64,000 nucleotides of DNA from Cyanidioschyzon merolae (taxonomy: Eukaryota), in assembly GCA_000091205.1 (NCBI GenBank), contig AP006486.2, one strand, 5' to 3'. Below, in pieces: positions 808-51,960 of the stretch (the first letter of the stretch is position 1; each line of letters opens with the position of its first letter). Below the pieces are notes generated by a model. The model had not been told where the DNA came from, made no database searches, and was given only the letters and a program-made list of their open reading frames with translations. Position numbers and translations under genes: made by a program.

Positions 808-1008
808 GGCGCCCGAGCACACGCACACGCACACATGCACCTGTTGACTGACTCGGTTAGGATCAGCGACGATAATCGCGCGTATTCCTTCGTCGGACTC
901 GGGCGTCAACCTCGGGTAACCGCACGATAAGGCGCAGACGTTTCCGAAAGCGTCATGTTCGCGGGTTCGCGCCATCTGCGAGGATTAGCATTTGCCGGAT
1001 CGGAGCAT

Positions 1009-1689: not shown

Positions 1690-1819
1690 TCAAGCGCACG
1701 GAGGTCTTTTCGCGGTTGCAGCTCCCAAGCAAGCTCTGAAAATATGGTTCCGTTCAAAAAAAGATTCCCTGATACTTTACAAGTTTGTATATGTGTTAGA
1801 AAGCTGCAAGCGAAGATAC

Positions 1820-4345: not shown

Positions 4346-5019
4346 CGCTCACTATGCGTCGATTCGTTTTCCGATGTCAACACCTTGCCATAGAACATAG
4401 AATCCAGATTGCGGGATGGATACTGAAATAAATGAGAGCGCTCATTATTCTTCGCTCCACCTTCAAGTTCCATTACTTATACTTCCTCTGGGATCTACTG
4501 GTCGTTTCGTATATTCTATCGTGCACCGAGTGCCTGCCTCGCTGCACCTGCAATAGCGCCCGTATCGTTGGAGCAGCTGCATCACCGAGACAGAAGAGCT
4601 TTGCCATACCACTGAGGGCGTCGGATCGAGGAATACTTCTCCTCACACGGACTCGGAGTGCATAATCACTCTGGTAACCAGCATGCTGTGCTTAAAGGCC
4701 TACTGCCTGTGGCAGCGCGGAGCGATGTACTAGGAGCCACTGCGACCAGCGCAACGCCCAGAAGCAGCGTACCCGCTCCTAGTCCCAGGATAAACTGCGT
4801 TGCGGACGGACTGCTCAGATCGGACCAAAGCACCTGCCACTGGGAGGAGCATGAAGCACGAGGCTAGCTGTCTCGTACGACTCATGGGACCTTCCACCAA
4901 GAAGGTAAACCTTCGGCAATATGGAAAGCTTTCCCCTTTTAACGTTTCTCGTAGAGGGGTAACGAAATTGTTATCTCATTACTGCGTGGTCGCTCGTTGC
5001 TGTTCTTTTTCCTAGAGCG

Positions 5020-7530: not shown

Positions 7531-7563
7531 CGCCGCTCTGAAAATTCGCGTACCTCCGCGAGG

Positions 7564-8292
7564 ATGCCGCCACCAAACGACTCGCAGCGGTACTTCGAAG
7601 AGGGGCCCGTTCTTGCGCACCGCACGGACTGGAAACCCATCGCTGAGCGCTCAACTGCACAGCGCCCTGAGCCAGCACTGCAGGCAACCACAGAAGCGCC
7701 GAGCTGGTGGCGACAGGTGACGCGGCGTGGCGCTCGTGTCTTCCTCTTTTACGCGCTTCTTTATCCGTTGCTGGTGCTTTGTGTGGTAGGCGGTATTGTT
7801 GGTGGGTTCATCGGCGGTTTTTGGCTTGACTGGCACGCCATTCGACTGGCCGGCAACGCCTGGCTGGCGCTTGTCTCTATTCCGTATGCGACCGGTTTCC
7901 TTGCGCTCCTGTGGTTGATGCGAGCGGAGAGCTTCCGTGGGGCTTCCGCGGGCGCACTGAGCTTCGCATCGAACGCGCTTGGGAATGCAGCTAGTCGCTG
8001 CACTGCTCGCCTTTTGTTGTCATTGTCAATATCTGGGTCACTGGCGCTCCCCGCGTTTCTCTTCCTGAGCCGGCGGGTGCCGGCAGACGCAGCCCTGATC
8101 TGCACCGCAGGCACCGCTGTGATTTGTGCTTCGCTGGCGCTATGGGCGTTCGTTTTGGAGAGTGACTGGCTGGAGCCGCGAACCTGGCTCGAGCCCACAG
8201 CCCCATCGAACGTGTGGATACGACCCTCGTACTGGCCTCGACGTGAACATTATATCGACCTGGAAGCAGCGCCTACACGGACTGGCGGATAG
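7564..8292 (+). CDS. hypothetical multi-pass membrane protein
   Basis: 242-aa ORF with several hydrophobic segments and codon bias like neighbouring genes. No recognisable domain. It starts ~35 bp after the copy-2 element end. Confidence 0.3.
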   Translation: MPPPNDSQRYFEEGPVLAHRTDWKPIAERSTAQRPEPALQATTEAPSWWRQVTRRGARVFLFYALLYPLLVLCVVGGIVGGFIGGFWLDWHAIRLAGNAWLALVSIPYATGFLALLWLMRAESFRGASAGALSFASNALGNAASRCTARLLLSLSISGSLALPAFLFLSRRVPADAALICTAGTAVICASLALWAFVLESDWLEPRTWLEPTAPSNVWIRPSYWPRREHYIDLEAAPTRTGG

Positions 8293-9284
8293 CTATTGAG
8301 GCTCTGAGCGCCTCCAAGATGCCTTCATTGTTGCGAAGCAGTGGCGCGTACTCGATTCCCGCGCTTCATCGCAGACAGGGCGGCGATGAAGTGTTCGCGC
8401 TGCCTACTCTCCAGACGGCCACTGTGACATTCAGGGTGCCTCGGACGTCGGGCAATGCACCACTAGCGGGACACCGACGCAGCGCCTCTACTCGGGAGCT
8501 GCTCGCCTCACGTCGATGCATCCCGCACGCAAAACAGTACCGAGTGACAAGTTCGTGTCTCCGTGGCATCCAGGGTACCGCGTGCTTCCGGCACCCGCTG
8601 CTGTATTGCGGGATCTATTCACATCACATTCATCACAGACTGGTTGCCGACGCAGTGCAGGCAGTGGTCGAGCAGCATCAGACCTTGTATTTTCCCAGAA
8701 ACTCGATCGTGAATGGATGTTTACAATGCAGCTCAAAGTCTGATGCTCGGTTGTCTTCGAGTGAGCACATCCTCAACGAATGTGTTTCGCAAGAAGAAAC
8801 CAGGAGCGAGCAAAGCCATCTCGCATGCCCGGAAGCACGGCATCGCTGCAGACACCACGAGCGCATCTGGGCTCTTCATCGGTGGCGCCCGATCACGCTC
8901 GTGCTGCTCTGTCGCGGAGAGTCTTGACCTGACAACCACGACACACCATCTGTCATGAATCCATGTCCCTTATTCAAAGGCATTGGACTCATGTCGGATT
9001 CTGGATAGCCTCCGCGAGCGGGTGGTATCGCGCTGTTGCGGGTGAAACCATCCAAGCGCATACCGCTTGTGTCCAAGCGTTCAAAGTGCGTGCGGTGTGT
9101 ATCGCTCCGCACGAACTCTGAGGCTCGCGGTTTGGTCGTTCGTGATGGACACGACACAAGTCCAGCGCACTGGACTCTTGTCCAGTCCACGCCGTCCAAG
9201 GTGCAGCTGATGTCTACGCGCATACGCACGGCACAGAGCGCGGACCCGAAAGCAAGACTCAATCGAATAGGTATCCGCATTGCA

Positions 9285-10284
9285 TCACTTTTTACTACCA
9301 GGGTTAGCGTTCAGCGCGCGGACCAAGTCCTCGTCTCTCTCACTAGAGTCGAGCTGCAGTTGCAAGATACCCGCATCCAGGAATACCTTGTTGGAGCTCT
9401 TCGCTATTTTCTGCGCGATGTCTCTGGCGGCCTCTATCCGGCGGAGCTCAATAAAGCCCGGATTGCTTTTCATGGCATCGCCGATGAGCTTGGCACTGCG
9501 CGCTTCGCCCTGCGCCCGGATGATTGTGGCCTTCTTATCCTGCATGGCTTTTTCAACGAGAAAGCGACCGCGTTCCGCTTCTTGCTGCGCAACCTGCTTT
9601 GCCTCAACAGCTGCCGTGTATTCCTTGCCAAACGCTAGATGTGTGATGGATATATCGTCGAGCAGGATGTTAAAGTCCTTGGCACGCTCGATCAGGTTCC
9701 GCTGAATCAAACGCGACACCTGTTCTCTCTGCGTGATCAGCTGCGACGCATTAAACTGTGCAACAACTGCTTTTGTCACCTCATTCACGATTGAAGGCAG
9801 CACACGCTCGTCATAGTCCAGACCGAGCGTCTGGTAGATGACTGGTAGTTGTCGCGGGTCGGGTCTAGAGAGCACGCGTATCGTGATCTGAACCATCTGC
9901 AAGTCCCGGGAACCAGTTAACGTTGAAATAGAGCGTGGTTTCGCCCTAACATCATAGATGATCGGCACATCGATCCAGGGAATCCGAATGTGGGTGCCCT
10001 CGGGCACCACTGTGGGTTTCACCCCCACGAGGCGATTAAAAATGACAGCCCGGTGTCCTCCTTCGACTGCGTTCGACGTAGAATGTCTACATGGTTAGTT
10101 TGTGTTCATGATCCCAGGATTCTGACGTATCCCCAGTTCGCTTATGCTTACCATTATAGAGCGCGTACTTGTAGAAGGCCGCTGCACCCACCAGCGCCGT
10201 AACCCCGAGGCCAACCAGGCGCGTGTTCACAGCGCCACCGCCGCCACCACTTCCGAACCCACCAGACGATAACGGGAACCGCAT
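9285..10284 (-). CDS. PHB2: prohibitin-2, two exons (exon 1 ~10153..10284, intron ~10068..10152, exon 2 9285..~10067)
   Basis: Exon 2 ([23 protein letters not shown]...[18 protein letters not shown]...) matches PHB2 end to end. Exon 1 encodes the N-terminal membrane anchor and ends ...YALYN. An 85-nt intron runs GTAAGC...CGCAG and the spliced reading ...YN|[31 protein letters not shown] restores the conserved PHB motif. Intron borders are +/-2 nt. Confidence 0.85.
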
Positions 10285-10312
10285 ATCCTACCGGCCGATC
10301 CCAAATCGTTCG

Positions 10313-10331
10313 CACACGCACACACACACAC
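10313..10331. repeat. (CA)n microsatellite
   Basis: gcacacgcacacacacacaca seen directly; a similar short (CA)n lies at ~818-836. Confidence 0.8.
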
Positions 10332-11924
10332 AAAATAGAGTCTCCCAAGGTATCCTAGCAAACACGCAAAAAGTACACGATCGTGCGCGCTCTTCAGTAA
10401 CAAAACGCTCCAGCCAATAGGGGAGGCAGCGCAGCGCCCTGCGCCATCCGCCGTCAGCCGTCGACGCGATGCGCGCAGCATTGCTGCACTGCCCGGAAAG
10501 CGCGGCTTCGTATAGCTGGTGCTCTTCCGGAGACTGGGACGCAGAGCGGCACCTACATCGCAGTCGTATAACAGAAGCAACATCAGCAGAAGCACACGAG
10601 GGGAGTACGTTTGATTCGGTATAGCTGGAGGCAGCGTTCAACGACGGTTGCGTACGAGCGACCTGCGTTACGCTAGGGCGCTTTTTCTCGCGTGAACGAC
10701 CGGAAGCGGTTGGTACCAGGAGTGCCAGCACCGAAGCCTCTTGTGGTGTGACTGCTACCCAGAAAGCGTCCCGCTGGTGGCGGGCTCGGTTCAGCGAGCG
10801 CGTGAGTTCGCATCTTCGTGCGTACGACGACAGGCACGTAGAGACGCCAGCGTAACGGGTGTAGTGCGCGCCTCCGCCGGGTAACGCTCTTTACCATAAG
10901 GTCGCTGCTTCCAGAAAAGTGTGGTAACATTCGACTGGCGGTTTCACGAACGTGTCATAGTGACAACTGGAACAGCGTACCACCGGTAAGCATGGGTGGT
11001 ACACCGCGCTACCCGTACCCACGCGACGTCTGGTCGCCAGCTGGCGGCTGGTGGCCGCATCCTCGCGCTTGGCGTAGGAACACTGCAGTGGCAGCGTTCG
11101 GCCTCGTTCTTGTTCTGACGCCGATCTTCATCTACTCTGAGCGGATCTCCGAACGGCCTGAGGACGCCGCACGCCAGATCCCTTGGCGGCCGTGGGTCAA
11201 GGTGCGGGCAAACTCCATGACGTCAGAAACTGAACCCGGGCAGCACTGAGGGCCTTGCTGCAGCATGCGGCGGTGCGTCGAGAGCATCAGCGCTTGTGGA
11301 TGGAGCTTGTGCTTCCAAGTCGATCAAGGAGCGGTCACGCAAGCGACGATATAAACCAGAGATTCCGACGCGGTGAGATTCTTCTCTGAACGGAACGGAC
11401 AGGAAAGAATGGCATTTAAGGGTTCTATGCGGAGCGACGCGGACATCTGACCTGTGTTGCATGCGCGGCGCTCCGTGTATCTGTTTCCATATGAGTGCTG
11501 TTATGCGCTGTGGCGAGCAGTGCCAGCGGCAGCGTCTGGTACCAGTATCGCCGCTAACAACGAGCACACTACACTGCACACGCAGTGCAGCCGACAAGCT
11601 CCAGGACGGCAGGTACCAGCGACACACTTGGAGCAACGGGCAGGTTGCGCTTGTCCGATCGTATCCGTTGAGATGGATGCGCATGCTTGTTCCCGCTATC
11701 GAAAATGCAACGGTTGTGTGTCACTTTCGTGAACCGAGTTCGTCTGCGCCAGTCTTTATCGCGTATCTTGTTGCGCCCGAGAAAGATACCGTAAAAACAC
11801 GAGAAACACACCAAGGGTCCCGCATCACCATAAACGTTGAAGCTCGCGAAAACGTGCTGCCCTGGTATCCCAAACCGCGCAAACGTCAGCCAGCGCCGTC
11901 CGCTCCCGCGACCGTAGAATGCAT

Positions 11925-12140
11925 CGCTGGTGAACGTACAACTCACCTCAGGCCCTTTTATCACTCAGAGAACAACATGACGAAGTATGACTGTGCTAGT
12001 GTCCCGAAAGATGCACCGCTGGCGACCATAAACCGCACCTCAGGCCCTTTTATCACTCAGAGAACAACATGACGAAGTATGACTGCGGTGGTGTCCCACC
12101 AGATGCACCGCTGGCGAACGTACAACTCACCTCAGATCCT
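11925..12140. repeat. ~91-bp minisatellite, ~2.3 tandem copies
   Basis: Unit ACCTCAGGCCCTTTTATCACTCAGAGAACAACATGACGAAGTATGACTG...GATGCACCGCTGGCGA.. repeats with period ~91 bp (starts ~11946, ~12037, partial ~12128). Confidence 0.8.
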
Positions 12141-12239
12141 TCCACCGAACTATAGACAACAACACCCTAGACGTCAAAGCTGCCGTCAGCGACTGCAGCC
12201 GCAGGATGAGCGCGTGAACATCCCAGCTCCTCCAACGTC

Positions 12240-13019
12240 ATGGCCTGTCAACGAGTGCCTGGGTCTCGCGGTGCACCCGGGCGATGCGCAGGGCGCGGGC
12301 GCGATCACGTCAGTCGCCTTCTGCCGAGGGACGCGCTTTGCTCCCAAAGAGCAATCATCATCGGAGAACGTGAAGGAATGTTTCTTTCGGGTATAGGTCT
12401 TGACGGGATAGGTGTGCACACACGAGCAACGAATGCCGGCATAAAAAACGTGCGACCAGGGTGCAGGAGACGTGCGGCAGGGGCTTTTCGCTCGGGCAGC
12501 GTCTCGACATCCATGACGTTGACACGGAGGCGCCTCCTGCAACTGGGTCTCGGACAGGCGCTCGTTTGGACACTGAGCGGACTCGCGTGGGACAAAGCCA
12601 GAGCAGCGAATGAGAAAGATGTCCCAGAACTACCGTTTCCAGTGCAGGTCTTAGAAAAAGGTACCGGGCCTCAGCCGCAGACGGGCGACCTCGTGGGGAT
12701 CCGCTTCCGAGCGGCCTATAATGGCCGGGTATTCGACGACATCATGGACTCGTCGGAGCCATTCTACATGCGTGTTGGTTCCGGTAACCTTGTGAAAGGC
12801 GTCGAGGAGGCAGTGAAACGTATGCACGTCGGGGACTTGTGGCGCTTGGAGTTGCCGCCCGCGTACGCCTTTGGGAGCAAGGGCCGCAAGCCGTCCCCCG
12901 GGAAACCCGCGATCCCGCCGAACGCGACGGTCGTATATGAAGTGCGCCTCGATGAAGTACCAGGACGCGAGCAGGAGTTGCTTGAAGTCACTGGCGGCGA
13001 GCTCCGCGAAAACGACTAG
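12240..13019 (+). CDS. FKBP-type peptidyl-prolyl cis-trans isomerase with N-terminal extension containing a twin-arginine (RRRLLQLG) motif
   Basis: C-terminal ~110 aa form an FKBP domain (VQVLEKGTG...GDLVGIRF...VGSGNLVKGVEEAV..MHVGDLWRLELPPAYAFGSKG...IPPNATVVYEVRLDEV). The upstream TRRRLLQLGLGQALVWTLSGLAWDKARA resembles a Tat/lumen-targeting signal. True start may be downstream of 12240. Confidence 0.75.
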   Translation: MACQRVPGSRGAPGRCAGRGRDHVSRLLPRDALCSQRAIIIGEREGMFLSGIGLDGIGVHTRATNAGIKNVRPGCRRRAAGAFRSGSVSTSMTLTRRRLLQLGLGQALVWTLSGLAWDKARAANEKDVPELPFPVQVLEKGTGPQPQTGDLVGIRFRAAYNGRVFDDIMDSSEPFYMRVGSGNLVKGVEEAVKRMHVGDLWRLELPPAYAFGSKGRKPSPGKPAIPPNATVVYEVRLDEVPGREQELLEVTGGELREND

Positions 13020-14137
13020 GTGTAGGCGTGTTGTCCGCGCACAGTGCTCAGAGAGGCGGCATCGCCACACCGACGAGACCCAGGAGGCAGCGCGGTTTGC
13101 AGCACCAGAGTCGCCGCGAAGCCGCTACACACAGCGGCTCTGGGATCGAGCATGACGGACTAGCGGGGTTGGTCACAGTCGCAGACGTCGAGAAGCACAT
13201 GGACGTACTTGCGGTGGCGTTCTTGCGACGAGCGCCCGACGCATGTCGTTCTCGGGCAGCGTGATGCTCGACGCGGTCTATACTGAAGGACAGCGGGTTC
13301 AATTTGGGCATGTAGTCACGGCGAATGGAAAGGTCGATGTCAGCGAAGGTGCGCACAGGGTGTGCGTCAGGGCAACCTGGGGGCAGCTCGCTGGGCACCC
13401 TGTGCCTCGCGACCGCAAAACCCCGCGCGGACGCACAGGCTACCCAAGCGCAGCGTGCGGGCGGTCGATATAGACAGTGCCACAGCGTACGGCGGCGATG
13501 CAGTCGTCCACGAGCACCGTTGCGGCTTGTTGCCCATCGTGGAAAGCAGTTGTCGCGAGGTGTTCTGCATGCGGGCGCGCTGATCGATAGGTGCGCCTCG
13601 CGGCCAATGTGCAGCGGTGATGCCTCTTACGCAAGTGAAGCGATGTGTATTCCATACCTTGGCGTCATCTGTCGATAAACCAAGCGGGTCACGGTCAAGG
13701 ATACATAGCATTTATCGATGAAGCGGGCGTACTTGGCACCACCGAGAGTTCACGTATTTCCCGTCGACATGCTGACTGGAGCGGGGCCCATTCGTTACGA
13801 GACGCAAATCACAGAGAACCGAGCCGCGCTCGGCGCAGTCACGCTGTCTGCAGTGCGATACGCTCTTTAGGTTGCAGCACGTTCGACGACGCATTACAAT
13901 GGCATCCGCGTACCGCCCTGGTATCGCGCGTATGCAACGCAGAACACTGGTTGCATTCCAGGGGCCAGGGTTGTCGGCTGATTCTAGGGTTTTGGCGGCA
14001 GCGACGGCGGCCGAGTCAGAAGCAGTCTTCTATTCGCGCTTGTCGTTGGTATGGGCATTGCCGGGAACACCGCGTGGCGGGTCGCTGTGGATTTCGCGCA
14101 GCCTACGCCAGCTCGGTGCGTGCACTCCACCGGATAC

Positions 14138-17914: not shown

Positions 17915-18416
17915 CGTCGAATAACGAGCAAGGAATGCGCTGCGGCTGGAGCGAAGCGCCGGTGGGCGTCCACCGGCGCAGCTCAGGGGGAACGATCGTT
18001 GAGGCAGGCGCTTTCGTGGCGTACGCTTTATGGGCCTTTACCTCGAGTGTATTTTATCCTCAGGTGTGGGTAACCAATTGCTTATCCATGGTGCATAGCG
18101 GATGCGTTAGAAGTGCGTTCATTGGAAGGAAGAAAGGCTGTCATCGCCGGATGCGATAAAAAATACCAAAAAAATGTCTCTTGTCGCCGACTGCCGAGCG
18201 ACGGCGATAAAGAAAAACAAGAGGGCATCTAGGCGAGGAAAGGCGTTCGCCCGGCCTGGCGATGGCCAGACTCTAGGGGTACAGGGGGGTGAGGGTGAGG
18301 GGGGTGTTCGACTCTGAGCAATCCCTGAATTGGTGCGTTCAACCAGCGGCACTGCATATAAGGAGTTCATCAACGAAGACTTTTCACACCACGATCGATA
18401 CCAAGCGACGGGTGTG

Positions 18417-18560
18417 GTGCTGGAGACGAGAAACCCGAGGAGCTGACGCGATCCAGCCCAGTCGGACAGCCGCTCACGGTCGACTTGTACAACGACAAGT
18501 TGGAATCAGTACCAAGGGGCCGGTCAAAAAAAGTCGCGAAGCACCTGCACGTCGGTCTCT
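18417..18560 (+). repeat. solo degenerate 3'-terminal fragment of the Fanzor element (RuvC-III-downstream region)
   Basis: ctggagacgagaaacccgaggagctgacgcgatccagcc...gttggaatcagtaccaaggggccggtcaaaaaaagtcgcgaagcacctgcac aligns with copy-2 7315-7455 (ctggagacgagacctccagagccgacaagagag...gttggaagcagtagtgggtggccggtccaaaaagactgcgaggcgcctgcac). Confidence 0.5.
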
Positions 18561-23769: not shown

Positions 23770-25817
23770 AATGAATAGTAGCGCCTACTCCTAAACATTA
23801 ATAAACGTAAAACAGAACACCGACTGTTCCAGTGGTCAACAGCGAGGCATCCCGTTGGGTTGCGTATGGCCGGTTTCGGAAGAGTGCTAGCAAGAACGCC
23901 TTGAAAGAATGGAATGATATACCCATATGAGAACAAACCTAACTAAATCCGTACAATGGCGTGTCCATTGAAATCCGGGGCGCTTCCGACGATCACCAGC
24001 ACCAGCCTTGTGGGATTTTTCTGCGACTGCTTTCTTTACTCCTTCTCTCTTTGGCTTTACATATGCCGATCATCCCTTTTTCTCCAGCTTCGTTGTCAAC
24101 AGTCGAAGGATGTTGGCAGCGCCTCTCATGTCTGGACCTCGATGCTTCTGGCTGTTCTTGACGCATTTCATGCACGAGCGGAAGTTGCGATCTCTGTTTC
24201 ACTTGCTATTGTCATCTTCTTCGTAGACATTCAGGGTGCGCGGTTCACCACAGGACCAGTTCGGTATGATCAGGTCTTCTCATACAACCACTAAACCTCC
24301 TCCTATGAGAGCCGCTCTGTGCCGCGTGAGCACTTGCTTCCTTGATCAGCAGATGCCCTCGACGGGTTCAGAGCGCTCGTCTTGATTTCCTCGCATCCGA
24401 TTCCGCCCGCCGTTGCCGTATCCTGCAACCAATGGCCTCTTCTGGCTGGTCCCGTCGGCGAGTACGCTGTATGAAGCACACGCGCTCGCACACTGTTTCA
24501 TTCGACAGAGGATTTGCGGAAAGCGAAGTTCCCAATGACGGAACAAGTCCCGGAAGTCGAGTTAGGGCTGGAGAACGAGTCGAGAAATTTCGATCCGTAT
24601 TCGCTCCCTTTCTACAAAGCGATGCGCACGCTCCACTGGGAGCGACCCTTGCACGACTCAAGTCCGTGTCCAAGACCCATTTGCATGGAAGCAGATGAGA
24701 CAGAGGCTTCATGGGGTGTATCCCATTCGATTTGTCCTACTGCTTTGGAATGCAATTTCGTCGATGGCCGTAAAGAGCAGAGGATTTTTCTTTGGAACGA
24801 AATCTATTATTTGACGTGAAGAGTGCTTTCAACGTTCGGCATGCGCTTGCGAACAAGCCATCTGGAATCGACGTCAGGTTTGCTCCTCGTCGACACAGCA
24901 GCGAGAATTGCAGCACCCACGAGTTGTCTTGAAACAGAAGATTCGAAGACTTGAGGCATGCGTGAATCCCGCATGCTACACGTGCTGACAGCAGAAGCGT
25001 TGCTGCGTGAACCCATGAATTGGATATGGATATTGGATCTTTCACAAATCGTTTTTCGGTTGCGTCGCGAATCACCTCGATGACGGTGACGGAACGAATT
25101 GCAGTGGCAAAGCGTCGAAGAATGCGCTTCGAAACGACAACCGAGAACCTTAACACTACGCAAGGATCAATAAGCCCTGATCGCTGCACTTGGAATGTCG
25201 AGGTTGAACATCGAAACAAAAGTTCGGAGAAAAATCAAAAGGCAAGAACAGAGCAAGCATATCAGGCTTTCTTTTCAATCATGCATCAGTGGAGTCTGGG
25301 TACAACGCAGTCTCCTGCGCTAAAACGCTACCTGGTGAGTCACCCGCGAGTCTCGTGCAAAGCTCTGGTGCGCAGTATCGTGTGCAAAGAGGGTGTTCGG
25401 TAGCTCTTAGCGTGCGTACGGCATCGAGCGTGGGAAGAGCTGCCAGTGCTTCAAAAAATGGATATACAGCTGCACCCGTAACGCGCATTCGGTTCCGTTT
25501 ACCGTACTGGACGGAAAGCGTTCGTAAGCGGTTGCTGCGGGCCGGTCAGAGATGCCTCCCGAGGTGCCTCTGCCCATATCATGTTGCTGCGTTCGAGCAG
25601 AGCAGGTTTCGGGCCTCGACACCGCATCGTTCCAATGTTGGGCAGTGCGAAAGGCATGCTGTTGTACGCAATCTGGATTTGCTTGCTCACTGATGATGCT
25701 GGTTAGCTTCGCTGACGCTGCGTCCCTACACGTAAACGTTCTCCATTCGATGGGAGCAAGTTCCCAGACTGCAGCCACCAGGGATCGACCGAGTATTATG
25801 CCAACGGCAGTATATGC

Positions 25818-28577: not shown

Positions 28578-30002
28578 TCAGCGAATCGTGCCTCCTTGAA
28601 TGGTGGCGGCTCGACACGGTCCTTTATCCGTCGTAAACGGAATGTCACCGTAACGAGCCTCACAGGACGGATCCGTGCTCGTGCGGAAATGTTCCGCAAC
28701 TTTCTCGAATATTTTCTTTTTCGGATTCAGCTGCGCATCCGGCTGGTTATCGCGGTCTGCATCTGTACCGGGAAAGTAGACGCGGTCTCCGGGCTTGGCT
28801 CCAGGAGGCGGCTTGACGAGTTCCACTTGTGTCCCGTCGGCTGAGGTGGCGCAGAGCACCATCGCCTCGGAAACAATACCGCGCATTTTCACGGGTTTGA
28901 GGTTTGCCACCACGATACACGGCCCGAGTAGCTCTGCTGCATCGGGGATGTACTTGCGGAGGCCACTGCACACCGTAACGGGACCGCTGTCTCGACCAAT
29001 ATCGATTTCCTCGACATAGAGTGCGTCGGCATCGGGGTGCGGCTTTGCAGTGAGAATCTCCCCGACCCGAATATCGACGCGAGCAAGGTCGCTTCGGCCA
29101 TCCCCCGAAGCGTCTTTTGGCGTTTCAACTCGCGTCGTCTTTGCCGTTTTCGACGAGGCGACTGCACTTCCGGGCGCGGGCGCAGCTTCAACACCCGCCC
29201 TCGTCTCCTGGTCTTCCTGCTGCCCTGACTGAGACTCTGTTCCAGACCTTGCAGCTGTAGACGATAGTCCCGCGACACCAAACATCGGTGCTTGAGCTGT
29301 GGTTGATCGAAACCACGCTTTCGGAGGCAGCGGCACGAGTTCAACCCGGTCTGCGTGGCCGTACCGATGCAGGAGGTTTTGCATGAGGTCAAACCAGCGC
29401 CATACCTGTACGAGGTTGCTCCTCTGCGCAGCGTCAAGACCATCTTTTACCCAAGTTTCAAAAACTGGTGCAGTTGCTCGAGCTGCTGCCACGTCTAGAG
29501 CAGTCACCACCGGACCGCAGAGGAAAGTCTTTTCGCCCCGCGCAAGAACGTCTGGAAGCACCTTTCCAGCAAAAGTTTCCAACGACTCTCGCTGTAGCCG
29601 TTCCAGCATTCTCTCTATAAACTTCGTCCGCTCTGATTGCAGGGATCCTCCTCCCAGAAGTTCAGAGTGTGTGGGCAGCGCTTGCCGGCACGCTGTGACG
29701 AGTTCCGAAACGCTCTCGAACCGGTTCCGTGCAGTTGCTGCACGGCAAAGTGCGACCCACTCGGGGCAGAGGTTCGGGGACACTATCGTCATTACAGGCC
29801 AGCCTACGCTTTCTTTAATTCTTCGCCCAAAACCTGTCCCCAAACCCGAGAGGAACAGATCCCTCTCGATCAAGAAGAATTTTCGTGCGCTCATAGAGCT
29901 CTTCGCAGTGCATGCGTCGACGAGAGCCTGCGGGCATTTTCGCCAGCGAGTGGCGGGTCTTCTTTCAGGTTTTGTCTGTGCGCCGTCGCCGAGTTCAGAC
30001 AA
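28578..30002 (-). CDS. Arc1p/AIMP1-like aminoacyl-tRNA-synthetase cofactor: GST-C-like N-terminus plus EMAP-II/Myf tRNA-binding domain
   Basis: C-terminal DIRVGEILTAKPHPDADALYVEEIDIGRDSGPVTVCSGLRKYIPDAAELLGPCIVVANLKPVKMRGIVSEAMVLCAT...VELVKPPPGAKPGDRVYF is a canonical EMAP-II-type OB-fold tRNA-binding domain. The central K/T/S-rich linker is typical of Arc1p/AIMP1. Confidence 0.75.
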   Translation of the reverse strand: MSELGDGAQTKPERRPATRWRKCPQALVDACTAKSSMSARKFFLIERDLFLSGLGTGFGRRIKESVGWPVMTIVSPNLCPEWVALCRAATARNRFESVSELVTACRQALPTHSELLGGGSLQSERTKFIERMLERLQRESLETFAGKVLPDVLARGEKTFLCGPVVTALDVAAARATAPVFETWVKDGLDAAQRSNLVQVWRWFDLMQNLLHRYGHADRVELVPLPPKAWFRSTTAQAPMFGVAGLSSTAARSGTESQSGQQEDQETRAGVEAAPAPGSAVASSKTAKTTRVETPKDASGDGRSDLARVDIRVGEILTAKPHPDADALYVEEIDIGRDSGPVTVCSGLRKYIPDAAELLGPCIVVANLKPVKMRGIVSEAMVLCATSADGTQVELVKPPPGAKPGDRVYFPGTDADRDNQPDAQLNPKKKIFEKVAEHFRTSTDPSCEARYGDIPFTTDKGPCRAATIQGGTIR

Positions 30003-30883
30003 GCGTCAGACTCAAGTGGAACATAGGAATGCTTGCTTCGTTCGTCGTTCTCGACATCGACGAGCTTGGTTCAGATGTGCAGCATAGACATTCGAAATGC
30101 ACGGATAAGGGCTCACGGAAGCATGCGTCGTGTTGAGATTCGCCGACATCGTTTCTGAGTGGCTTCTTCGACGGTTTACCGCTGGAATTCGTTGCGTCTC
30201 CGAAACGAGGATGGCTCGCGACACCCTCGATGCAGGGCTCTTAAAGCGACCAATACGATCATCGGATTCGTTCGTACGCGGATCTATTCTTCCCCTTTTC
30301 TCAAGTGTGGCAAGCTGAAATCACGCCTTCCTCATGTTTTCGATCTTTTTGTGTTTCAAGGAAACAGGTGAACAAGGCAACTTGAACCAATGTATTGACT
30401 AGGAGCGTACTCGAACTCGTCCTTCGACGACTTGCCCACAAACTTATGCCGCATGCTCTCTGAAATCGTCAAGCGAAATCATTGACCCTGTACTTATGCA
30501 ATATCCTAGTCTCTTGGTGGCTATCGGCGATACAACATTCTACTCCAGCATGATATTTGTCACAGGGTACGCTCCCAGAGGTTCTAGTCTCTAGTGTTTG
30601 CAGGGAAGATGTTCTTGGACTCGAAGTCGAGTTCTCGCAGCAATCGCCTTCATTCGGGAGAGCGTCAGCGCTTCGCATGAACGCATCCTGGCCGGATCTA
30701 GGTTTCTTGACGTGATCTCAGGCCTGGATTTTTCCGTTCAACAGTTGTTACATCGCGGACAACATCGCGTTCCACAAATCCGGTTCTATTCGGAAACAGC
30801 TGCGAACAGAGCACGGTTCATCGTACAGACGCCATCTTATTCTCTGTGATTCAACCCGAGTTAGATCGTCACCAGGGTCTCGA

Positions 30884-31345
30884 ATGGAAGCAAATCATTC
30901 GTTGGAGAATGCAACAGCGTGCGTTAGTTTGAGCAGCAGACCGAGGACTTGCCGAGGGATCGCTCCGAAGAAGCCCATGATCATCGTGGACAGTACCGGG
31001 CGCGAAATCACAAGCGAGCATCCATGTCATGCTCTGCATTCGTTAGGGGCATGTACAGAGCGAGGAAGCATGCTTCTTTTTCAAGCGCCACAAGGCGGTG
31101 CCTGGAACAGCAGGAGCTCCTTCGGTAGATCGTTCTGAACACCAAACCACACTCCCGTGTTACTGCAACGAAGGGCGCACCGAGGCTGTGTTCAAAGAAC
31201 ACGAAGATGGCAAGCAAAGCGTAGATTGCAACGCCCGCTCGTGTGTGAAGCGCCCCGACAACAGTCGATAGCAGCAAAATCGGGAACTGAACGCTGCCAT
31301 CAACATCCTTCAACTACTGACAACAGACGCAGAAGGACAGAGGAG
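30884..31345 (+). pseudogene. degenerate TnpB-like remnant of a second, more prokaryote-like family
   Basis: Reading through two stops in one frame gives ...KKPMIIVDSTGREI...QGGAWNSRSSFGRSF*TPNHTLPCYCNEGRTEAVFKEHEDGKQSVDCNARSCVKRPDNSR*QQNRELNAAINILQL. This parallels the TnpB C-terminus (...CSCCGH...YTCPHCGLVLDRDLNAAINI): a CxC...CxxxxC zinc finger followed by the (D/E)LNAAINI RuvC-III motif. Confidence 0.4.
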
Positions 31346-31527
31346 ACCAGTGCATTGAAAGCGAGAGATGTGTGTTGAATGAAACGAAGAAGGCGCTGCG
31401 ATCACAGAGGGCATACATAAACACCCACTCACAGACGCCTCCGAGCCCTTTTCGACGGGCCGCCTGCTATCGGCTACAGTTTTTATCGCAGCGCACTTCG
31501 TGTTGAGCGGCTGCCCGGTAAGCTTAG

Positions 31528-32000
31528 ATGGCGGCAGCTCTGCGAGTCTCTTGTCGTCAGCACCGCACACATCATCTGGTATTGGTGGCAGCATTGAAAT
31601 CTGGGTTCTCGAGCTCCATGCGTTTATTGCCGCTGAATGAACTCGCCAGCGCAAGGATTCCTCTAATTTGTACCCTCTGTGGAAATACAGTCTCACCATC
31701 GTCCCGTCGGGCAAACACCTCTTCTCGCATATACCCCATCGTCTTCGTCACTTGCGTTTCTTCGCTCGATTGTCGGCGAGAAGAAGATTTTTTCGTTTTG
31801 TTTTCGGGCACCCGGCGATGATGGCCCTCCAGGATCCGCGACTTTCCGGTCCATACCTTCCCATTAGATTTTTATTTCTTCAAATGAACGCACTTTGAAC
31901 GCTTCTCCAATAAACCGCGAAAGCGCATTTGATGACACGGAAGTGAGCGTGCAATGCAATTAAGGTGAAAGACTATGCCAGCGCGAGCATATGCTAGACC
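31528..32000 (-). mobile_element. internally deleted non-autonomous derivative (mini-element 1) of the family-A Fanzor element
   Basis: The 5'-end-homologous part (31800-32000) aligns with copy-1 3900-4300 (e.g. ccctccaggatccgcgactttccggtcc vs cctccaggatcgtcgactcagtttttc; gaacgcttctccaata shared). The 3' part retains a decayed RuvC-III block (ENPDFNAATNTR at ~31581-31607, minus strand). About 1.8 kb of ORF is missing. Confidence 0.55.
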
Positions 32001-33483: not shown

Positions 33484-33990
33484 TTTCCATCTCAATTGCG
33501 TTCCATGCCCAGGTGCGTTTCATTGAATGCTCTCTCGTGGTTCATAGCAGAGGCGGTGGAAGTGCGTCCCTTTGATGCGCTAAACATCTGAGGGAAATGG
33601 ATGGGCGTGAAAGTCGGGAGTCCTGGACAGCTTCTATAGCCGGGTGTCCGAAAAAGAAATGAAAATAGTTTTCCCTCGCCGACAATCGAGCGAGGAAGCG
33701 CAAGTAACGGCGAAGAAGACGACGAAGAGGGTAGACCGGCGAGAAAAGTGTTTATCCTGCGGGAGAGTCACGAGACTGTTGCTGGACAGAGGCCAAGAAC
33801 GCTTGGGATCCTCGCACCGGTGCAATCAACCAGAGGCAATGCACGTACGGAGTTCGTGAACCGAAACGTAACATTGCCATCATTACGCGACGATGCTCGT
33901 GGAGCTGACGCGAGCCAACTTTGTTCGTGTAGCTCTAGCTCCAGCAGAATCGGCAAACGCTCAAACACGCAGGGCCTGGTGAAATCCCAA
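33484..33990 (+). mobile_element. internally deleted derivative (mini-element 2) of the family-B Fanzor element (copy-3-like)
   Basis: 5' part tccatctcaattgcgttccatgcccaggtgcgtttcattgaatgctct aligns with copy-3 49595-49650 ctaaactcaattgtgttccatcgccaggtgcgtggaatcaaatgctct. 3' part has decayed RuvC-III TEFVNRNVT and gagctgacgcgagccaactttgt matching copy-3 51770-51800. Confidence 0.5.
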
Positions 33991-34039
33991 GTTGTCCAAC
34001 TGATGGACGTTGCTAGACGTGAGGGGAACCTCTTCAATC

Positions 34040-34650
34040 ATTCGACAAGGTGAATGAAGTTGTCTGCGCCTTCTATTCGCGTTCGATCGTACATAGGACG
34101 GGCGCCCTGCTCGGCGAATACCCATAGACGCTCCGACCGTTTCGTCCAAAGGGAATCTCATGGACTGAGAAAAACAACGTCCCTGTGCTTCATACCGAGC
34201 GCGAAGATCCAGGGACGCTGCCGTTGCGATGATCTCCGCAGAAGATGGTCGTGAAAGAACCAGGACTCTGTTTTTGCGATTATACCCCAGTGTTTTCAGG
34301 ACCACACGAGCAAGCTGCTGAGAACCAGTGACGCCCGTAGCGACTAATATCGTCGCTTTTGCATCCCGCTTGGTGATCAGCGGGTCATTTTTCTACTATA
34401 GAACGCGAGCAGTCTTTAAAAATATCGGTTGCTGGCGCGGAGCGCATATCCTTCTCTCTTTCAGTATTCCACAACCATTTGAGCACTGTGGTATGACTCA
34501 CCTGAGGGAGGAATGCAATCCTGCTTGCACTGCGCAGTAAACAACATATATCCGATAGTCAATTCGTCTAGAATCCATGCGGTACCTGGCATCGTGATGT
34601 TGATCGCCATCTATCCACCGCAGCAGGCGTGGTCCACCATTCAGTCGAAA
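34040..34650 (-). repeat. dispersed ~0.6 kb repeat, copy a, containing an NmrA/SDR-like Rossmann N-terminal pseudogene fragment
   Basis: ~75% identical over ~550 bp to 45990-46580 in the same orientation. Minus strand encodes ...KATILVATGVTGSQQLARVVLKTLGYNRKNRVLVLSRPSSAEIIATAASLDL (NAD(P)-binding GxxGxxG) with no in-frame ATG and decaying sequence after ~60 aa. Confidence 0.5.
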
Positions 34651-44785: not shown

Positions 44786-45229
44786 TTGCGTTGCCGAAGA
44801 AGAGCGGGACGCGGCCCTGCGTTGCTAGACTTTCACGCACCTACGCTCAGATTGTGGGCGAGCTTTAGGCGCACGTCAGGCGCAGCGCGCTGCTGGGGCG
44901 CTCTTCTCCGTGGGTACGACGCCGCAGCCGCCGCAGCCGCCGCAGGCACCCTCGCTGTTGGCTCACGGAGGCGGTGGCGATGTGCGCGCGTCGGGCGGCA
45001 GGTCATAATGCGAGTGTCCTGTTTATTCCATAAAGTTCTGTTTCATCAGCGACACGCTGTGGTATGCGAAAGTGTTGGGCTGGCTCTTGTGCATGGACCG
45101 ACAACCGTGTTGGCATGCAATGGAACAGGTACTTTACCAAGACATACCATTGAAACAAAAGATGTCTTCAGGGAATGGAGTATATATACGCACCAGCAGA
45201 CGACTCCCAGCCTTTATTGACCGGCCCAC

Positions 45230-45800
45230 TGTTATAGTTTTTCAGTTTATCTAGGTACAGTTCGGGTGCCAAAGACTGCCCCACGACGTTGGATCGCTTC
45301 AGCTCTTCGAGTATCGTCTTCAGCACCGCATATCGTCTGATACAGATGGAGATGTTGAAGTCTTGCTTGAATATACCATCGCAGGGATTGCTGGCACTTG
45401 TACCCTCTCTGCCGCAACAGGCTCGTCATTGTCCCGTCAAGCAAACTGCCTTACTCGCCTATCTGCCCTTTTCTTGTTAGTCATTTGCTATTCTCTGCTC
45501 GATGGTCGGCGTGAAGAGGGTTCTTCTTTTTTGTGAAATTCGCCTATGAGAGTCCATCAGGATCCCCGACTTGCGTGTCCATAACTTTCCTTCATTTTTT
45601 TAAATCTTCAAATGAACGCACTTGTTTATGCCCAAAGGTGAGGAGTCTCCCCCGACTGCGAAGGACTTGTGGAAGAAAGATGACGCGTGCCCCAATGTCT
45701 ACATGTGCTGAACGCTTCAGCGAGTCGCCCAGTCCAGCGATCATTACGTTTTACCATAGAAAACACTCTAGCCATGGGTTTGAACCAGGCAGCGCGCTAA
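45230..45800 (-). mobile_element. internally deleted derivative (mini-element 3) of the family-A Fanzor element, same deletion junction as mini-element 1
   Basis: 45290-45640 aligns continuously with mini-element 1 31560-31915 (e.g. ccatcaggatccccgacttgcgtgtccataactttcc vs ccctccaggatccgcgactttccggtccataccttcc; tcttcaaatgaacgcact shared). The 45640-45790 stretch continues into the 5'-end region (ctgaacgcttc, aaaacactctagcc vs copy-1 aaaacacttgactag). Confidence 0.5.
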
Positions 45801-45989
45801 GGAATGAAGAGCAGCTCTGCCCGCGGATAGAATCGGCAAATGCACGAGCGCAAAGGGAATGGTGATATGCCACGCTGTCCAATGAGGAAAGTCTCTAGGA
45901 GTCAGGGAGAAAAGTCTTCAATGATTTGAGAAAATGGTTGGTGCTATCGTATGCGCATTCTCTACGAGCGGAACTGAGGCCACTACTGG

Positions 45990-46580
45990 AATCCACTACA
46001 TCTAGAACAGATGATGGATTCCTGGTTCTCTTCGCGTTCGATTCTGCATACCACGGTCTCCTTCAGTGCGAATGCCCATATACGCTCCGACCGTGTCATC
46101 AGAAGCAAGTCTCACCGACTGAACCAAACAGATGTCACTCAGCCGCAAACCAATCGCGAGATTCCACGAATGCTGTCGTTGCGATTTCGGTGGAAGATGG
46201 CCATGCGTGAATTGGTCACTTTTTGCGTCTGTATTCCAGTGTTTCGAGGACCAAACGAACAAACTGTTGGGAAACAGACACGCCTCTGGTGGCTAATGTC
46301 GTCGCTTTTGCTTTCCGTAGAGTGATCAACGTGTCGTTTTCAACCATGGACCGGTTGCATTTTTTGAAAATATCGGTATTGGACGCGTGGCCCATCTACT
46401 TCTTTCTTTTAGTGTTCCTCAGCCATCTGCGAGCTTTTTTATGACTGACCTGGATGAGGCATGCAGTCCTCCTTGTACTGTACAGTAAAGCGTATGCCCT
46501 GCAGGCAATTCGTCTACGATCTGTGCCGAACATGGAGATCGTGATTACGATCTCCAGCGATGCACTGCGCAAAACTATTC
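45990..46580 (-). repeat. dispersed ~0.6 kb repeat, copy b (NmrA-like fragment TLATRGVSVSQQFVRLVLETLEY...)
   Basis: Homologous to 34040-34650 (shared strings gcgaatRcccataKacgctccgaccgt, cgttgcgat, tcgtcgcttttgc, aaaatatcggt). Immediately follows mini-element 3, as copy a follows mini-element 2. Confidence 0.5.
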
Positions 46581-48560
46581 GGCAACACTCGGCGCGGGTG
46601 AAACATAACTGAGTTGAAAGACTATAGCGTGCAGATGCTCAAGCTCGTGTAACCTTTCACTGTCGTCAACATCAGTCCTTACAGGCTTTTTCTGCGTGTG
46701 TTTCCTTTCCGTTTATATTATCTTTGGCTATAAATACAACGGTATCGGGTTTACCGCTAGCTCCATTGGCAACAGCTGAAGACGCTGATGGAAGCGCTCA
46801 GGTCTCGATTTCTGCCGTTCCGGGTATTGTTCATGCATTTTATGTACAGAAGGAATTTGCGATTTCTGTTGGGTTGCACGCGTTCCTGTGCTGTGCAAAC
46901 GGCCTTGGTAGGCACTCTGCAGCGGTGACATTGGAACGTCGCCAGGTGCTCCCATACATTCACTCTATATGGCATTCTCCGGTGATCACCGTATGGAGTT
47001 TGAACGCCCGCAGCATCGCCCGGTACCTGCCCTTGACGGGCAAAGAAGGCTCCCGTCGATGCCGTCCTCCGATTTAGCGTACTGCATCGTACTCTCCCGT
47101 TACGGGCTTGTTCCAGATGCTGGCCCGGGAGAGTACTCTGTCTGCTGCAGATGCATGTACTTGCTGTTCTATTCGATATACAGGCTTTGTCGAGCTTGGT
47201 TTTGTACGTCATGAAAGAATTGCAGGGAGGAAAAGCTAACCTGGTCAACAAGTCGGGAAACTTCGATTCGTCCCGCTTTATCCGTGCAAATCGGTAACGC
47301 ACACTTGACTGGAGGCGATCCCTGGGATCATTACAGTCCGAGTCCAGCACCCTTGTCCATCTGAAGATGAGAGACGACAGCATCTGGCAACGCATCCTGT
47401 AATAGGGATCATGCTGATGTCGAATGCGGTCTTGTCGATAGCCACGAAAGAGGAATGTGTTGGATTTCGGACGGAATTGCTCATTGTACGTGACAATTTC
47501 AGTGAACTTTAGGAATGAGCGTGTGAAGAGGTCATCCAGGGACAACCATTTTGTTTCCTGTTCAATAAAGCTGCGCGAATCGCTGCGTCGACGATTTGCG
47601 ACGAAACAGAAATATCGAATACTTGATGCAAGCGTGATTTGAGCATGGAACTCGGAAGTGAGCGAAACGTGGACGCATGTACTCATGATTTGGGTAATGA
47701 TATCGGTTACTTTAGGAATCCTTATTCGATAGCGTTGCGAATCGCCTCTATTCCGTCAAATTCATGAATTCCAGCGGCTAAGCTTCGGAGCCACATCAGA
47801 TAGACGACCGAGTATCCTGGACCTTCGTATGAATCCGTATGTCGGTATCGCTGTACTTCGGGCGTAGAAATTTGACATTTATGGATAATTTGGGACGAAA
47901 TCGAGTGACGGAGAACAGAGCACGCAGTTCACTTTTCGAATTAATCTTGTACGTATCTCGCACGAGACAACTTAAGTGCCTGCCTGGATATTCTCAATAT
48001 TTCTCGAAGGCTTAAGATTAGCTCCCGCTTGTCGTGACTGAGAAACGGAGGCGTTGCCGGTGGCGCTCAGCGGTCCCAAGGTGTCGTGATGCAACTCGTT
48101 GCGCTCTGAACGGTCGAACAGGGTTTGGGCCCCTGAACCCGTGCCTCTCCGAGCTGATCACTTTCTGGCATCGAAGGCATTGGAACAGGCCCTAGCCGAT
48201 AAGATGCAGCACAGCAACCTCATTGGAATCGTTATCGAACTTGAGGCGCACTTTCCGTCACTGCAGACTGAAGATGCTTCAACTCCATCCAGCTGAGGAA
48301 GCTGCAGTTCGCAGCTGTGCAACAGTGGTTGTGCCCCAGTGAGGCACTCTTCGGATATTTGTTTTCATATCGGATGCTTTACAAGTGCACCGGCCTGTCC
48401 GAACTGAATGAGTCACAGCACAATCTGAGTATCGCCATGCTCTTTACGTTCCCATCTAATACAGGGCAACCTGGCTCCATGACCATCTTCTCTTGTACCA
48501 GATATCCGCACCAGCGACATTCCCTGGTGTCGTTGTATTCGAAACTGCTGCTCGCTCGCC

Positions 48561-49587: not shown

Positions 49588-51960
49588 GTGCATTTCTATC
49601 CTCTAAACTCAATTGTGTTCCATCGCCAGGTGCGTGGAATCAAATGCTCTTCCGCGGTTCATTGCAGACGTGCTCGATGTGGGTTCATTTGAAGAAATAA
49701 AAAGTTCTGCGAATGGAATTGGAGACTTCTGGAAGCCTGATTTCGCCGGCTGCCGCAGAAAAACGAAAAGCAGTGTTGAGCGAAGAGGAACAAGACAGCA
49801 TGAAGAGGCAGAGGCAGGAGGCCCTGCGTCAAAAGCTGCTCGAAAGATGAGAGTACGACGAGACGGTCGTGGACGCCTGTCTTCTTGTACATGTCAAGGA
49901 TCCGTATGAGCAAACGATGCAAGCGGACGTCAGAAACCGTGTCGAGTCGTACCGCATAAGTATGATAAAGGCCGCTCCAAGACTGATGTATGTGGTAACG
50001 AAAGTGTATCGCGACATAACGCACGCGGAAACAATCGAGTTTCCAGAGGAAATTTCCAACGTAACCTTCATCGGCCACCTGACGCTTGCCACCGGGGAAA
50101 CGTCGAGGTGAAATGAGCGGGTGCATGGCCTCCATGAAAATTACGCCAAATACCGCCTCAACGGCACTCGATACAGGGATGACTCGGGTGTTTACACCTA
50201 CGGGGCGTTGAATTACCCTACGAACCTGAGAAAGCATATGAACATGAACCTGAAACGCTTCATGGTACGCGCCGTCATTGCGCTGTACCCGGGCCTCTCT
50301 CGCAAAGGGATACGAGTCATCATCCGTGGCATCACGAATGATCGACAGCATGAACAGGAGATCGAATTCTTCCACAAGAAGACATCACGCAAGAGAAAGA
50401 ATGAAGCTTCTGTAATCCGTGCGGCTATTATTGAGCACCGTGCAGTCTTGGGGCTTGTCAACCTACAAGAAAAGATATCAGATAGGAAAAAAGATGAAGA
50501 AAGATGTTATCCCCTAATCCTGCGCAATTTCGTGTTTTTTGACCGAGAACTCGAACGCAAAGCCGACATGGAGCTGAGTAGGGGAAAATGCGCAGTCGGA
50601 GAGACGCAAGGCTGCGGTTCCGGGGAGGCGCCTCAATATCGTTCCGTTATGCTACGTCAAGTCACGCGTTGTGACAATCGACTCCACAATCCTTTATACC
50701 ATCATGAAGGAGATCAGTCCCGAGTTCAATGCAAGCAGGGAGAAGTTCACCCGCGGAGACGGGAAAATCTACCGGATGAATATCTTCGATTTCAAGCGCC
50801 TCAACACCAGCAAGAAAAAGTTATTCACTGGGATGATCGAAAGCGATGGAGTAGCCGTGTGTGGAGACTATCGGCGCTTGAAGGCGGATCGCCCAGTTCC
50901 GTCATCGGCTTCGCCCTTGGCGAAGCATGAAGAAAACAAAGAGGCTGGCAGTACGAAACAGGAGGCGCAGGAGGACGACTGTGCCGTTGGCGCGGACCCG
51001 GGAACACGAATATCGTACCCATCGCAGCACCCAAGCGTGCGGAAGACGGTATCGACGGCAACTTACGCCACAATGACATGCGACTTCCAAAGTACTTGAG
51101 AGCGAAAAATTGCCGATAATCGGGAATAATGAATGCAAGGAAGGAAAGTGAGACATGGAATGCAGGAGTGAGCGCGCACCTGGAAGCTATGAGCAATTTC
51201 GCGAGTCGTGGATCGAACTTTCATTTCTTTCGTGAATTCATGGAATATCAAGCTGCTCGTGACGAGGAGCTGTGGAAATAGCAAACAGAACCGCGATGGG
51301 CTCGTCTGCGAATGAATCCGCACAGAGGGAAGCAGCGCGCGTTCGCGAAATTTTTCAAACAGTTGATTGCCCTCATGGAGGACAAGAGTCAAAGGCTCAT
51401 ACTAGCATACGGAACTGGGCGCTGGGCACCCGGAAAAGGGTGTGTACCCGCCCCGTCGACGAGAGCGTACAAGGAGTGCGCACGATGTTTTGTCACGATA
51501 CCGGTAGATGAGCTCCGAACATCGTATGTGGATCATGAACTGGGATGTCCACCTCCGAGAGTCGAGATGGAAAAGTGCCCGTGGAGCCCTGAGGATATAA
51601 AAAAGCACGGAGAGCTGACGGAGCATCAAATGGCTCAGAGGGCGCGAGTTGGAGGACTCCTTGCATAGGTGAGCTCTACCAACGGTAACAAACGCACTGA
51701 CTTCGTGAACCCAGACTTTAACGCCGCTATCAATATCAGACGACGTGCTGTATTGGAGAAGAGATATCCCGAGCTAACGAGAGCCAACTTTGTCGGGCAA
51801 CCTCTTAAGGTGGCACTCTACGAGAAGCATTTGAAACCGATCGCAGCGGGCCGGTCGTAAACGGCCGGGAGACGCCTGCCGGGTGGATACCTATCTACCC
51901 TATGTGGCCGTGGAACATTTTTCGTTTCACTGACAAATGAGTTTGCGCTGGTAGCGCGTA
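49588..51960 (+). mobile_element. Fanzor1-like element copy 3 (family B, ~55-60% protein identity to family A), 3' end approximate
   Basis: 5' boundary was set by the end of homology with mini-element 2. The 3' region gggccggtcgtaaacggccgggagacgcctgc parallels the family-A ggtggccggtccaaaaagactgcgaggcgcctgc. Confidence 0.6.
49700..51860 (+). pseudogene. Fanzor1-like nuclease ORF copy 3, broken into pieces (49869..50111, 50121..50930, 50671..51099, 51312..51668, 51669..51860)
   Basis: N-terminal MYVVTKVYRDITHAETIEFPEEISNVTFIGHL and NERVHGLHENY...LYPGLSRKG...IEHRAVLGLVN...FVFFDRELERKA are homologous to copies 1 and 2. RuvC-I DDCAVGADPGTR has a frameshift inside the motif. Zinc finger KECARCF...HELGCP...KCPWSPEDIKKHG. 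RuvC-III DFVNPDFNAAINIRRR at ~51705-51737. Confidence 0.65.

Follow-up and report, generated by a model that had tools for sequence, protein, structure and literature searches.

Some described Mariner elements encode a transposase in their 5′ part and Fanzor1 in their 3′ part, and Fanzor elements are often chimeric (Bao & Jurka 2013, PMC3627910). Fanzor proteins are recognizable by two fingerprints: a DPG motif at RuvC-I, and a RuvC-II glutamate displaced to a site six residues ahead of the zinc finger (Yoon et al., PMC10711439). Here we consider a decayed nuclease remnant at positions 30884–31345 of a 64,000-nucleotide stretch of Cyanidioschyzon merolae DNA (hereafter the window), which is part of a repeat that shares with the Tc1/Mariner Fanzor1 elements PGv-1, PUl-1 and PUl-4 (PMC3627910) the order of 5′ transposase and 3′ Fanzor1 in the same orientation. 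The [TS][TS]-x-x-C4 zinc finger...RD arrangement and the Fanzor1-specific conserved Gly and Glu are also common to both. Viral carriers have been described for the Tc1/Mariner Fanzor1 group (PMC3627910), and the relatives of the repeat reported here lie near virus-like genes (MutS, PIF1, Prim-Pol). In contrast to these elements, the transposase of the repeat lacks the third catalytic residue and its Fanzor part lacks the N-terminal ~520 residues including RuvC-I; moreover, all copies are pseudogenes, neither terminal inverted repeats (TIRs) nor TA duplications could be demonstrated, and the parent element was not observed.

Two further systems offer points of comparison. A profile of intact relatives of the repeat matches the solved Fanzor1 structures (9cf0, 8gkh) across the REC, RuvC and C-terminal zinc-ribbon/RuvC-III regions, although at low identity, whereas the copies in the window represent the C-terminal fifth only and are predicted to be incapable of activity. 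Bacterial TnpB (IS200/IS605, IS607) and Fanzor2 have the TNB/zinc-ribbon and RuvC-III module (PF07282) in common with the repeat family (family 2), but the intact relatives of this family possess DPG instead of D-hydrophobic-G at RuvC-I and span 550–800 residues instead of ~400–500.

Copies and layout of the chimeric repeat

Self-comparison (tblastx and blastn), DNA alignments and nhmmer placed the remnant as the 3′ third of a chimeric repeat of ~1.4 kb (copy A, ~30006–31425, + strand). Comparison of 30003–31400 with the window gave opposite-strand matches at ~25224–24047 and 47658–46779, and an nhmmer search of the whole window returned exactly three copies. The other two are copy B (~23897–25283, − strand, with its Fanzor-derived part at 24040–24507) and copy C (~46578–47947, − strand, with its Fanzor-derived part at ~46722–47178), the ends of both being approximate. 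What the preliminary description took for a lone remnant beside a mini-element is in fact one of these three DDE_3–Fanzor copies, which are 56–59% identical to each other with conserved motifs in register. Metagenome contigs supply at least six further lineages of the repeat, giving nine lineages in total with pairwise identities of 52–60%.

The 5′ two-thirds of the repeat derives from a DDE_3 transposase cut just past its second catalytic aspartate, and the 3′ third is what remains of a Fanzor1 gene, its final ~155 codons. The IS630/Tc1-mariner (DDE_3) transposase-derived segment of copy A spans 30075–30781 (+), comprising an N-terminal part (30075–30411) and a catalytic-core fragment (30412–30781). 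Frame 2 of the nine-lineage consensus reads the transposase N-terminus and DDE_3 core (VAIDETAF...GSWTRT...IMDNIAFHKS) and matches Pfam DDE_3 with E 4.9e-11 and 43.1 bits (cut-off 28.6). Similarly, a five-copy consensus matches NCBIfam IS630 (E 3e-10), and a protein that spans the 5′ half of the repeat (P0124) matches Pfam DDE_3 with E 7e-6. The first catalytic Asp has been lost from copy A (VAIGDT) and the second is retained (IADNIAFHKS). Since the consensus match ends at position 117 of 146 in the DDE_3 profile, taking in both Asp motifs and stopping before the third catalytic residue, this part of the repeat is a truncated transposase remnant.

No more than a few nucleotides separate the transposase and Fanzor parts (FHKS / CRMEQRALACAAD), and the junction is off frame by 1 nt in copy B, in lineages E, L016 and L018, and in the nine-lineage consensus. 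The exact breakpoint is uncertain because the Pfam DDE_3 alignment of the transposase frame continues ~25 codons beyond the inferred junction. Across the DDE_3 core (consensus ~400–770), two frames that overlap are each free of stops for ~150 codons. Past the junction, the transposase-frame codons read ...EYSPRG..., reminiscent of the YSP in 'PYSPxLNPIE' of DDE_3; the same DNA is clearly Fanzor-derived in the other frame, and the likeness is probably coincidental. Exactly at the junction, copy A holds 118 private nucleotides (30782–30899, +) that are missing from eight of the nine lineages and have no other match in the window, reflecting either an insertion in copy A or a loss from the other lineages. 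A suggestive likeness of this segment to the 'YSP..NPIE' region, which would supply the third catalytic residue of the transposase, was discounted given its absence from those eight lineages and the lack of any profile support.

Origin, decay and surroundings of the copies

The repeat, with the remnant as its 3′ third, is likely an old and dead non-autonomous chimeric DNA transposon, formed by deletion from a mariner–Fanzor1 element. The parent would have been a Mariner-type element with a 5′ transposase gene and a passenger Fanzor1 gene at its 3′ end. Most simply, an internal deletion would have taken the 3′ end of the transposase together with the 5′ two-thirds of the Fanzor gene, after which the deleted element may have been amplified in trans and left to neutral decay. 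Each copy now differs by 25–28% from the nine-lineage consensus, with differences distributed evenly among first, second and third codon positions (p 0.19–0.96); tests on the three copies and on the nine lineages alike showed no codon-position periodicity of substitutions. This even spread indicates that the copies have decayed without coding constraint since their amplification.

An alternative history, in which a one-off nested insertion or rearrangement joined the two fragments and segmental duplication of host DNA then multiplied them, seems unlikely to us. Homology among the lineages stops at the same two points, beyond which the flanks are unrelated, and the loci are non-syntenic with the window and with each other; in addition, the star-like divergence of the nine lineages fits an amplification burst. 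Segmental duplication would nevertheless agree with termini that lack significant TIRs or clear target-site duplications. A candidate 16-nt TIR (TCAGATTCAAATGGAA / TTCCATTTTATGCTGA) at the limits of conservation has 13 of 16 matching positions, a value equalled by 117 of 500 shuffles; TA lies beside it in some copies, with TA duplications only suggestive, and an inverted-repeat search around each copy produced only 12–24-nt matches of no clear meaning. It would agree, too, with the failure of our searches to find an intact parent, i.e. a complete DDE_3 gene and a complete Fanzor1 gene between one pair of ends. No DDE_3 gene occurs beside the intact Fanzor relatives in their contigs, and scans of viral contigs with both halves of the repeat confirmed no relatives.

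Under the deletion model that we favour, the joining of the two parts is an accident. It is very doubtful that the chimera is instead a natural fusion or operon-like pairing, or that the Fanzor 3′ end was retained for a role in cis. As a fusion, it might descend from a once-functional combination of a DDE transposase core with a Fanzor zinc-ribbon/RuvC-III module, which, if true, would represent a eukaryotic route toward RNA-guided transposition. As a cis-acting remnant, the Fanzor omega-RNA and right end might be needed for the mobilisation or homing of a non-autonomous element. When the 3′ ends of five copies, where ~200 nt of sequence come after the Fanzor-derived part, were examined for conserved RNA structure, 0 pairs were predicted; the repeat also had no match in Rfam.

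The chimeric repeat is predicted to encode no working protein, because RuvC-I is absent and, in most copies, the reading frame changes between the two halves; the absence of RuvC-I by itself would make the copies in the window inactive as nucleases. The possibility that a 309-aa open reading frame (ORF) in copy C (46757–47686) is an intact gene was dismissed, since it follows the ancestral frame for no more than its 69 C-terminal residues.

Copy A lacks the last ~110 nt of the repeat unit and also has a +2 indel. Tail-to-tail with it, from ~31426 where its 3′ end is missing, stands mini-element 1 (31432–31971, −), which arose by deletion from the main Fanzor1 family of the window and was delimited by tblastn with the main-family protein and by repeat families. 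It consists of a C-terminal coding remnant (31432–31695) and the shared terminus (31739–31971). This terminus recurs as a 232-nt inverted pair (31739–31970 and 33485–33716; 72% complementary) that brackets ~1.5 kb of mini-element 1. A second mini-element lies at ~45200–46340 beside copy C and has internal blocks in common with the first (33946–34391 versus 45829–46340), such that main-family mini-elements occur, in different orientations, near the 3′ ends of both copies A and C. On the other side of copy A, a 474-aa ORF (28578–30002, −) has its listed start four bases from the 5′ end of the repeat, which consequently occupies the would-be upstream region of the ORF; inspected by eye, its C-terminus is presumably EMAP-II/tRNA-binding-like. 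Elsewhere in the window, a 92-nt unit occurs in three tandem copies at 11912–12187 (86% and 62% identity to the first). Two metagenome contigs (L001 and L002, from JGI metagenomes 3300050356 and 3300050355) are 98.9% identical to window positions 60–13270, indicating that those samples contained either the source organism or a strain very close to it.

The Fanzor1-derived segment and its affinities

The Fanzor1-derived segment of copy A (30900–31367, +) covers ~155 C-terminal residues, and its affinities are more readily seen in the nine-lineage consensus, frame 1 of which is the Fanzor tail and passes the PF07282 threshold (E 4.7e-7, 30.3 bits; cut-off 26.3). A single protein, P0133, reaches 34.1 bits against the same model. 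A profile of the three conceptual translations and the consensus retrieved five proteins from a large protein collection. P0124 is one of the five, and two others, P0122 and P0125, each preserve an intact C-terminal half (...RPVIIGYGTGRGKGGGHKGE..VPVKAMY...VDVWEHLTTKKCHRCE...DRDFRVCEHCS...RNRDFNAAIDILTLL). An exhaustive HMMER search seeded with these two and with P0121, also from the five and an ORF of a decayed repeat copy, yielded 274 proteins at E ≤ 0.001, among them full-length members of 551–798 residues. The intact relatives display hallmarks of Fanzor1, namely SIETDGVG, G(L/A)DPGRVN at RuvC-I, an LS..GG....W..YL helix, GYGTG, WEHLTTxKCxxC and RNRDFNAAINIL. From intact outside relatives only, we built a 17-sequence profile (A8) that includes no sequence of the window. 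Aligned to it with hhalign, the repeat profile (A6) gave a probability of 99.9% (E 4e-33, 47% identity) with only columns 111–268 aligning, a part that covers the GYGTG block, the alternative RuvC-II glutamate, the C4 zinc ribbon and the RuvC-III RD-NAAxNI motif. The origin of the remnant in the TnpB superfamily, as originally proposed, is thus upheld by both the consensus and the intact relatives.

Intact or near-intact relatives are found on contigs L004 (ENA ERZ27265933), L008 (JGI 3300035702) and L009 (ENA ERZ27280268). These are densely packed, with neighbours that include PIF1, Prim-Pol, MutS (with a faint HNH match), an HMG box, RNA ligase and Peptidase_S74; judging by these neighbour genes, the contigs look like putative giant-virus genomes.

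Comparison with the other copies clarifies how copy A itself should be read. In a three-frame translation of 30884–31345, the frame from 30885 reads ...SVDRSEHQTTLPCYCNEGRTEAVFKEHEDGKQSVDCNARSCVKRPDNSR*QQNRELNAAINILQLL. The preliminary description assigned the cysteines and the RuvC-III motif to one frame crossing two stop codons; they do share this frame, with a single stop between them, namely the TAG read from the sequence at 31269–31271 (+) that separates the zinc ribbon from RuvC-III. The CxC...CxxxxC finger described from the same translation is present if the pattern is taken literally, but its ancestral form is CxxC...CxxC. Specifically, CYRC...CMKC in the nine-lineage consensus has become CYCN...CVKR in the decayed C4 ribbon of copy A (31158–31253, +), where two of the four ancestral cysteines remain (31158–31160 and 31242–31244) and two unrelated ones have been gained. 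The consensus thereby shows a C4 ribbon with an RD-NAAxNI module, which in copy A has further suffered the stop and a change of RD to RE. The RuvC-III motif of copy A, NRELNAAINI (31278–31307, +), has Glu at the catalytic Asp (31284–31286; consensus NRDLNAAINI), and a six-frame scan of the window for N[AG]A.N[IL] located four sites, this one and those of the three main-family copies.

Upstream, the supposed RuvC-II-like block PMIIVDSTGREI (30974–31009, +) has a true counterpart in that it is the decayed equivalent of the conserved KPVIIGYGTGRG block, which sits at the site of the canonical TnpB RuvC-II glutamate. DNA alignment matches it with QKRPLVAGYGNGG of copy B (RPLVAGYGNGG) and RPVIIGYGTGRG of P0122, P0125 and P0126, and hhalign pairs the GYGTG-type block of the repeat with RLVVAYGAGR of the main family. 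However, it is read in a different frame, from 30884, and the Asp within its IIVDSTG is a decay substitution at a Tyr position. The same 84-aa ORF from 30884, rather than the NAAINI frame, contains QGGAWNS (31091–31111), formerly put forward as a GW block. DNA alignment reveals a 5-nt indel in copy A at ~31070–31074 (+) relative to the other copies, and copy B maintains a single frame through this stretch; 3′ of the frameshift, the ancestral frame is the one that holds NAAINI. Because copy A shifts frame here, QGGAWNS is spurious, an out-of-frame artefact. In total, the segment has incurred one frameshift, one stop, the Asp-to-Glu change in RuvC-III and the loss of two zinc ligands.

The canonical RuvC-II glutamate ~50 residues before the zinc finger is absent, the site reading GYGTG in the relatives and VIVGYSTGRG in the consensus. 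The alternative glutamate (ExxxxxxCxxC) occurs in both the consensus (WEHLTTVQCYRC) and the intact relatives (WEHLTTKKCHRC), and copy A keeps E-x6-C: its SEHQTTLPCYC has the Glu codon at 31137–31139 (+), six residues before the Cys at 31158–31160 and at the same position as in WEHLTTxKCxxC of the consensus and intact relatives. The second fingerprint, DPG at RuvC-I, is found in the intact relatives (GLDPGRVN, ALDPGRVN) and falls in a region that no copy of the chimeric repeat has kept.

These features bear on the earlier view that the remnant is more prokaryote-like. We regard it as highly improbable that it stems from an independent TnpB (or Fanzor2/IS607-type) lineage acquired on its own, from bacteria for instance. 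A profile comparison had been proposed between Fanzor2 and TnpB, yet A8 finds its best matches in the PDB in Fanzor1 of Parasitella parasitica (9cf0, E 5.9e-17), with Fanzor1 of Spizellomyces punctatus (8gkh) at E 2.4e-10. The weaker matches to mimivirus L79 (Fanzor2-type, E 5.6e-4) and to one bacterial TnpB (E 0.2) might be counted in favour of a prokaryote-like origin, but lie 7–13 orders of magnitude behind. Profiles of the three conceptual translations and of three relatives (A7) returned only noise from the PDB. The relatives are 550–800 residues long, and their motifs (DPG, the alternative glutamate and GYGTG at the canonical site) agree with the Fanzor fingerprints of PMC10711439. Traits of the IS607 type are absent, as the sequence adjoining the Fanzor part is a DDE_3 fragment and not a serine recombinase. 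In favour of a bacterial affinity is the canonical C4 ribbon, with which the repeat passes the Pfam TnpB/Cas12f TNB model. The main family of the window lacks the zinc-finger cysteines and scores only 10.8 bits in that model, and this difference in retention is probably the source of the TnpB-like look. Finally, RDL in place of RDF, cited as a bacterial sign, is not diagnostic, since RDLNAA also occurs in divergent main-family members.

The main Fanzor1 family and the second lineage

The main family (DUF8286/PF26935) has three large copies in the window, at 1834–4352 (−), 5026–7524 (+) and 49640–51879 (+), the first of which retains a 541-aa open frame (2086–3711). Its profile matches the Fanzor1 structures 9cf0 and 8gkh (E 6.5e-10 and 2.9e-7). 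Additional main-family coding remnants were detected by tblastn (E 4e-10 to 2e-4) at 18318–18553 (+), 45213–45365 (−) and 56646–57871 (+), and the window is dense in Fanzor debris. Intact members resemble the A8 clade in possessing IETDG, DPG, a G-x-G block, the alternative Glu and RD-NAAxNI, and hhalign aligned A8 with the main family over the full length (100% probability, E 1.3e-47, 15% identity), a homology that also speaks against a bacterial origin of the repeat.

This kinship raises the question of whether the repeat is simply a strongly diverged main-family copy. The RuvC-III motifs are near identical (NRELNAAINI versus NRDFNAAINI) and the LLVAYGAGRW and GYGTG blocks align (hhalign E 1e-4), as such an origin would predict; however, DNA similarity is lacking, and tblastn with the main protein gave only ~20-bit fragments here. 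Furthermore, the copies are 47% identical to the A8 clade, itself at only 15% identity to the main family, and their element structure and termini are unlike those of the main family. We accordingly see little prospect of the two being one family: family 2 differs from the main family in profile identity (~15%), in termini and in the zinc cysteines, which the main family has lost, and the main family still has a 541-aa ORF in the window. The claim of a second lineage beside the main family therefore stands, and, by its sequence relationships, the chimeric repeat belongs to a second lineage of Fanzor1 in the genome, separate from the main family and eukaryotic/viral, not prokaryotic, in type.

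That the likeness arose by chance in a short decayed stretch, a caveat raised from the start, has almost no likelihood. Pfam, NCBIfam and the PDB sequences (phmmer) contained no match to the raw remnant alone up to E 10, and a word-index search of 5.8 billion proteins none either, but A8, free of window sequence, matches 31125–31364 in the six-frame translation of the 64-kb window at 38.6 bits (domain E 3.4e-12). A8 also matches the two paralogous copies (53.1 bits for copy B at 24504–24040; 27.1 and 10.4 bits for copy C), which carry the same motifs in register, and the consensus is above the Pfam thresholds.

The repeat is an ordinary fossil; Fanzor1 within Mariner-type elements has been known since 2013. 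For the typing of such fossils, it illustrates that a lone RD-NAAxNI motif cannot mark a remnant as bacterial-like, and that recovery of the ancestral frame depends on comparison with paralogous copies. Overall, at least two distinct lineages of Fanzor1 occur in the genome of this eukaryote, one being left only as an amplified, internally deleted Mariner–Fanzor chimera with its closest intact relatives in giant-virus-like contigs. This makes a small addition to what is known of Fanzor1 capture by DDE transposons and of viral spread, and changes no concept.
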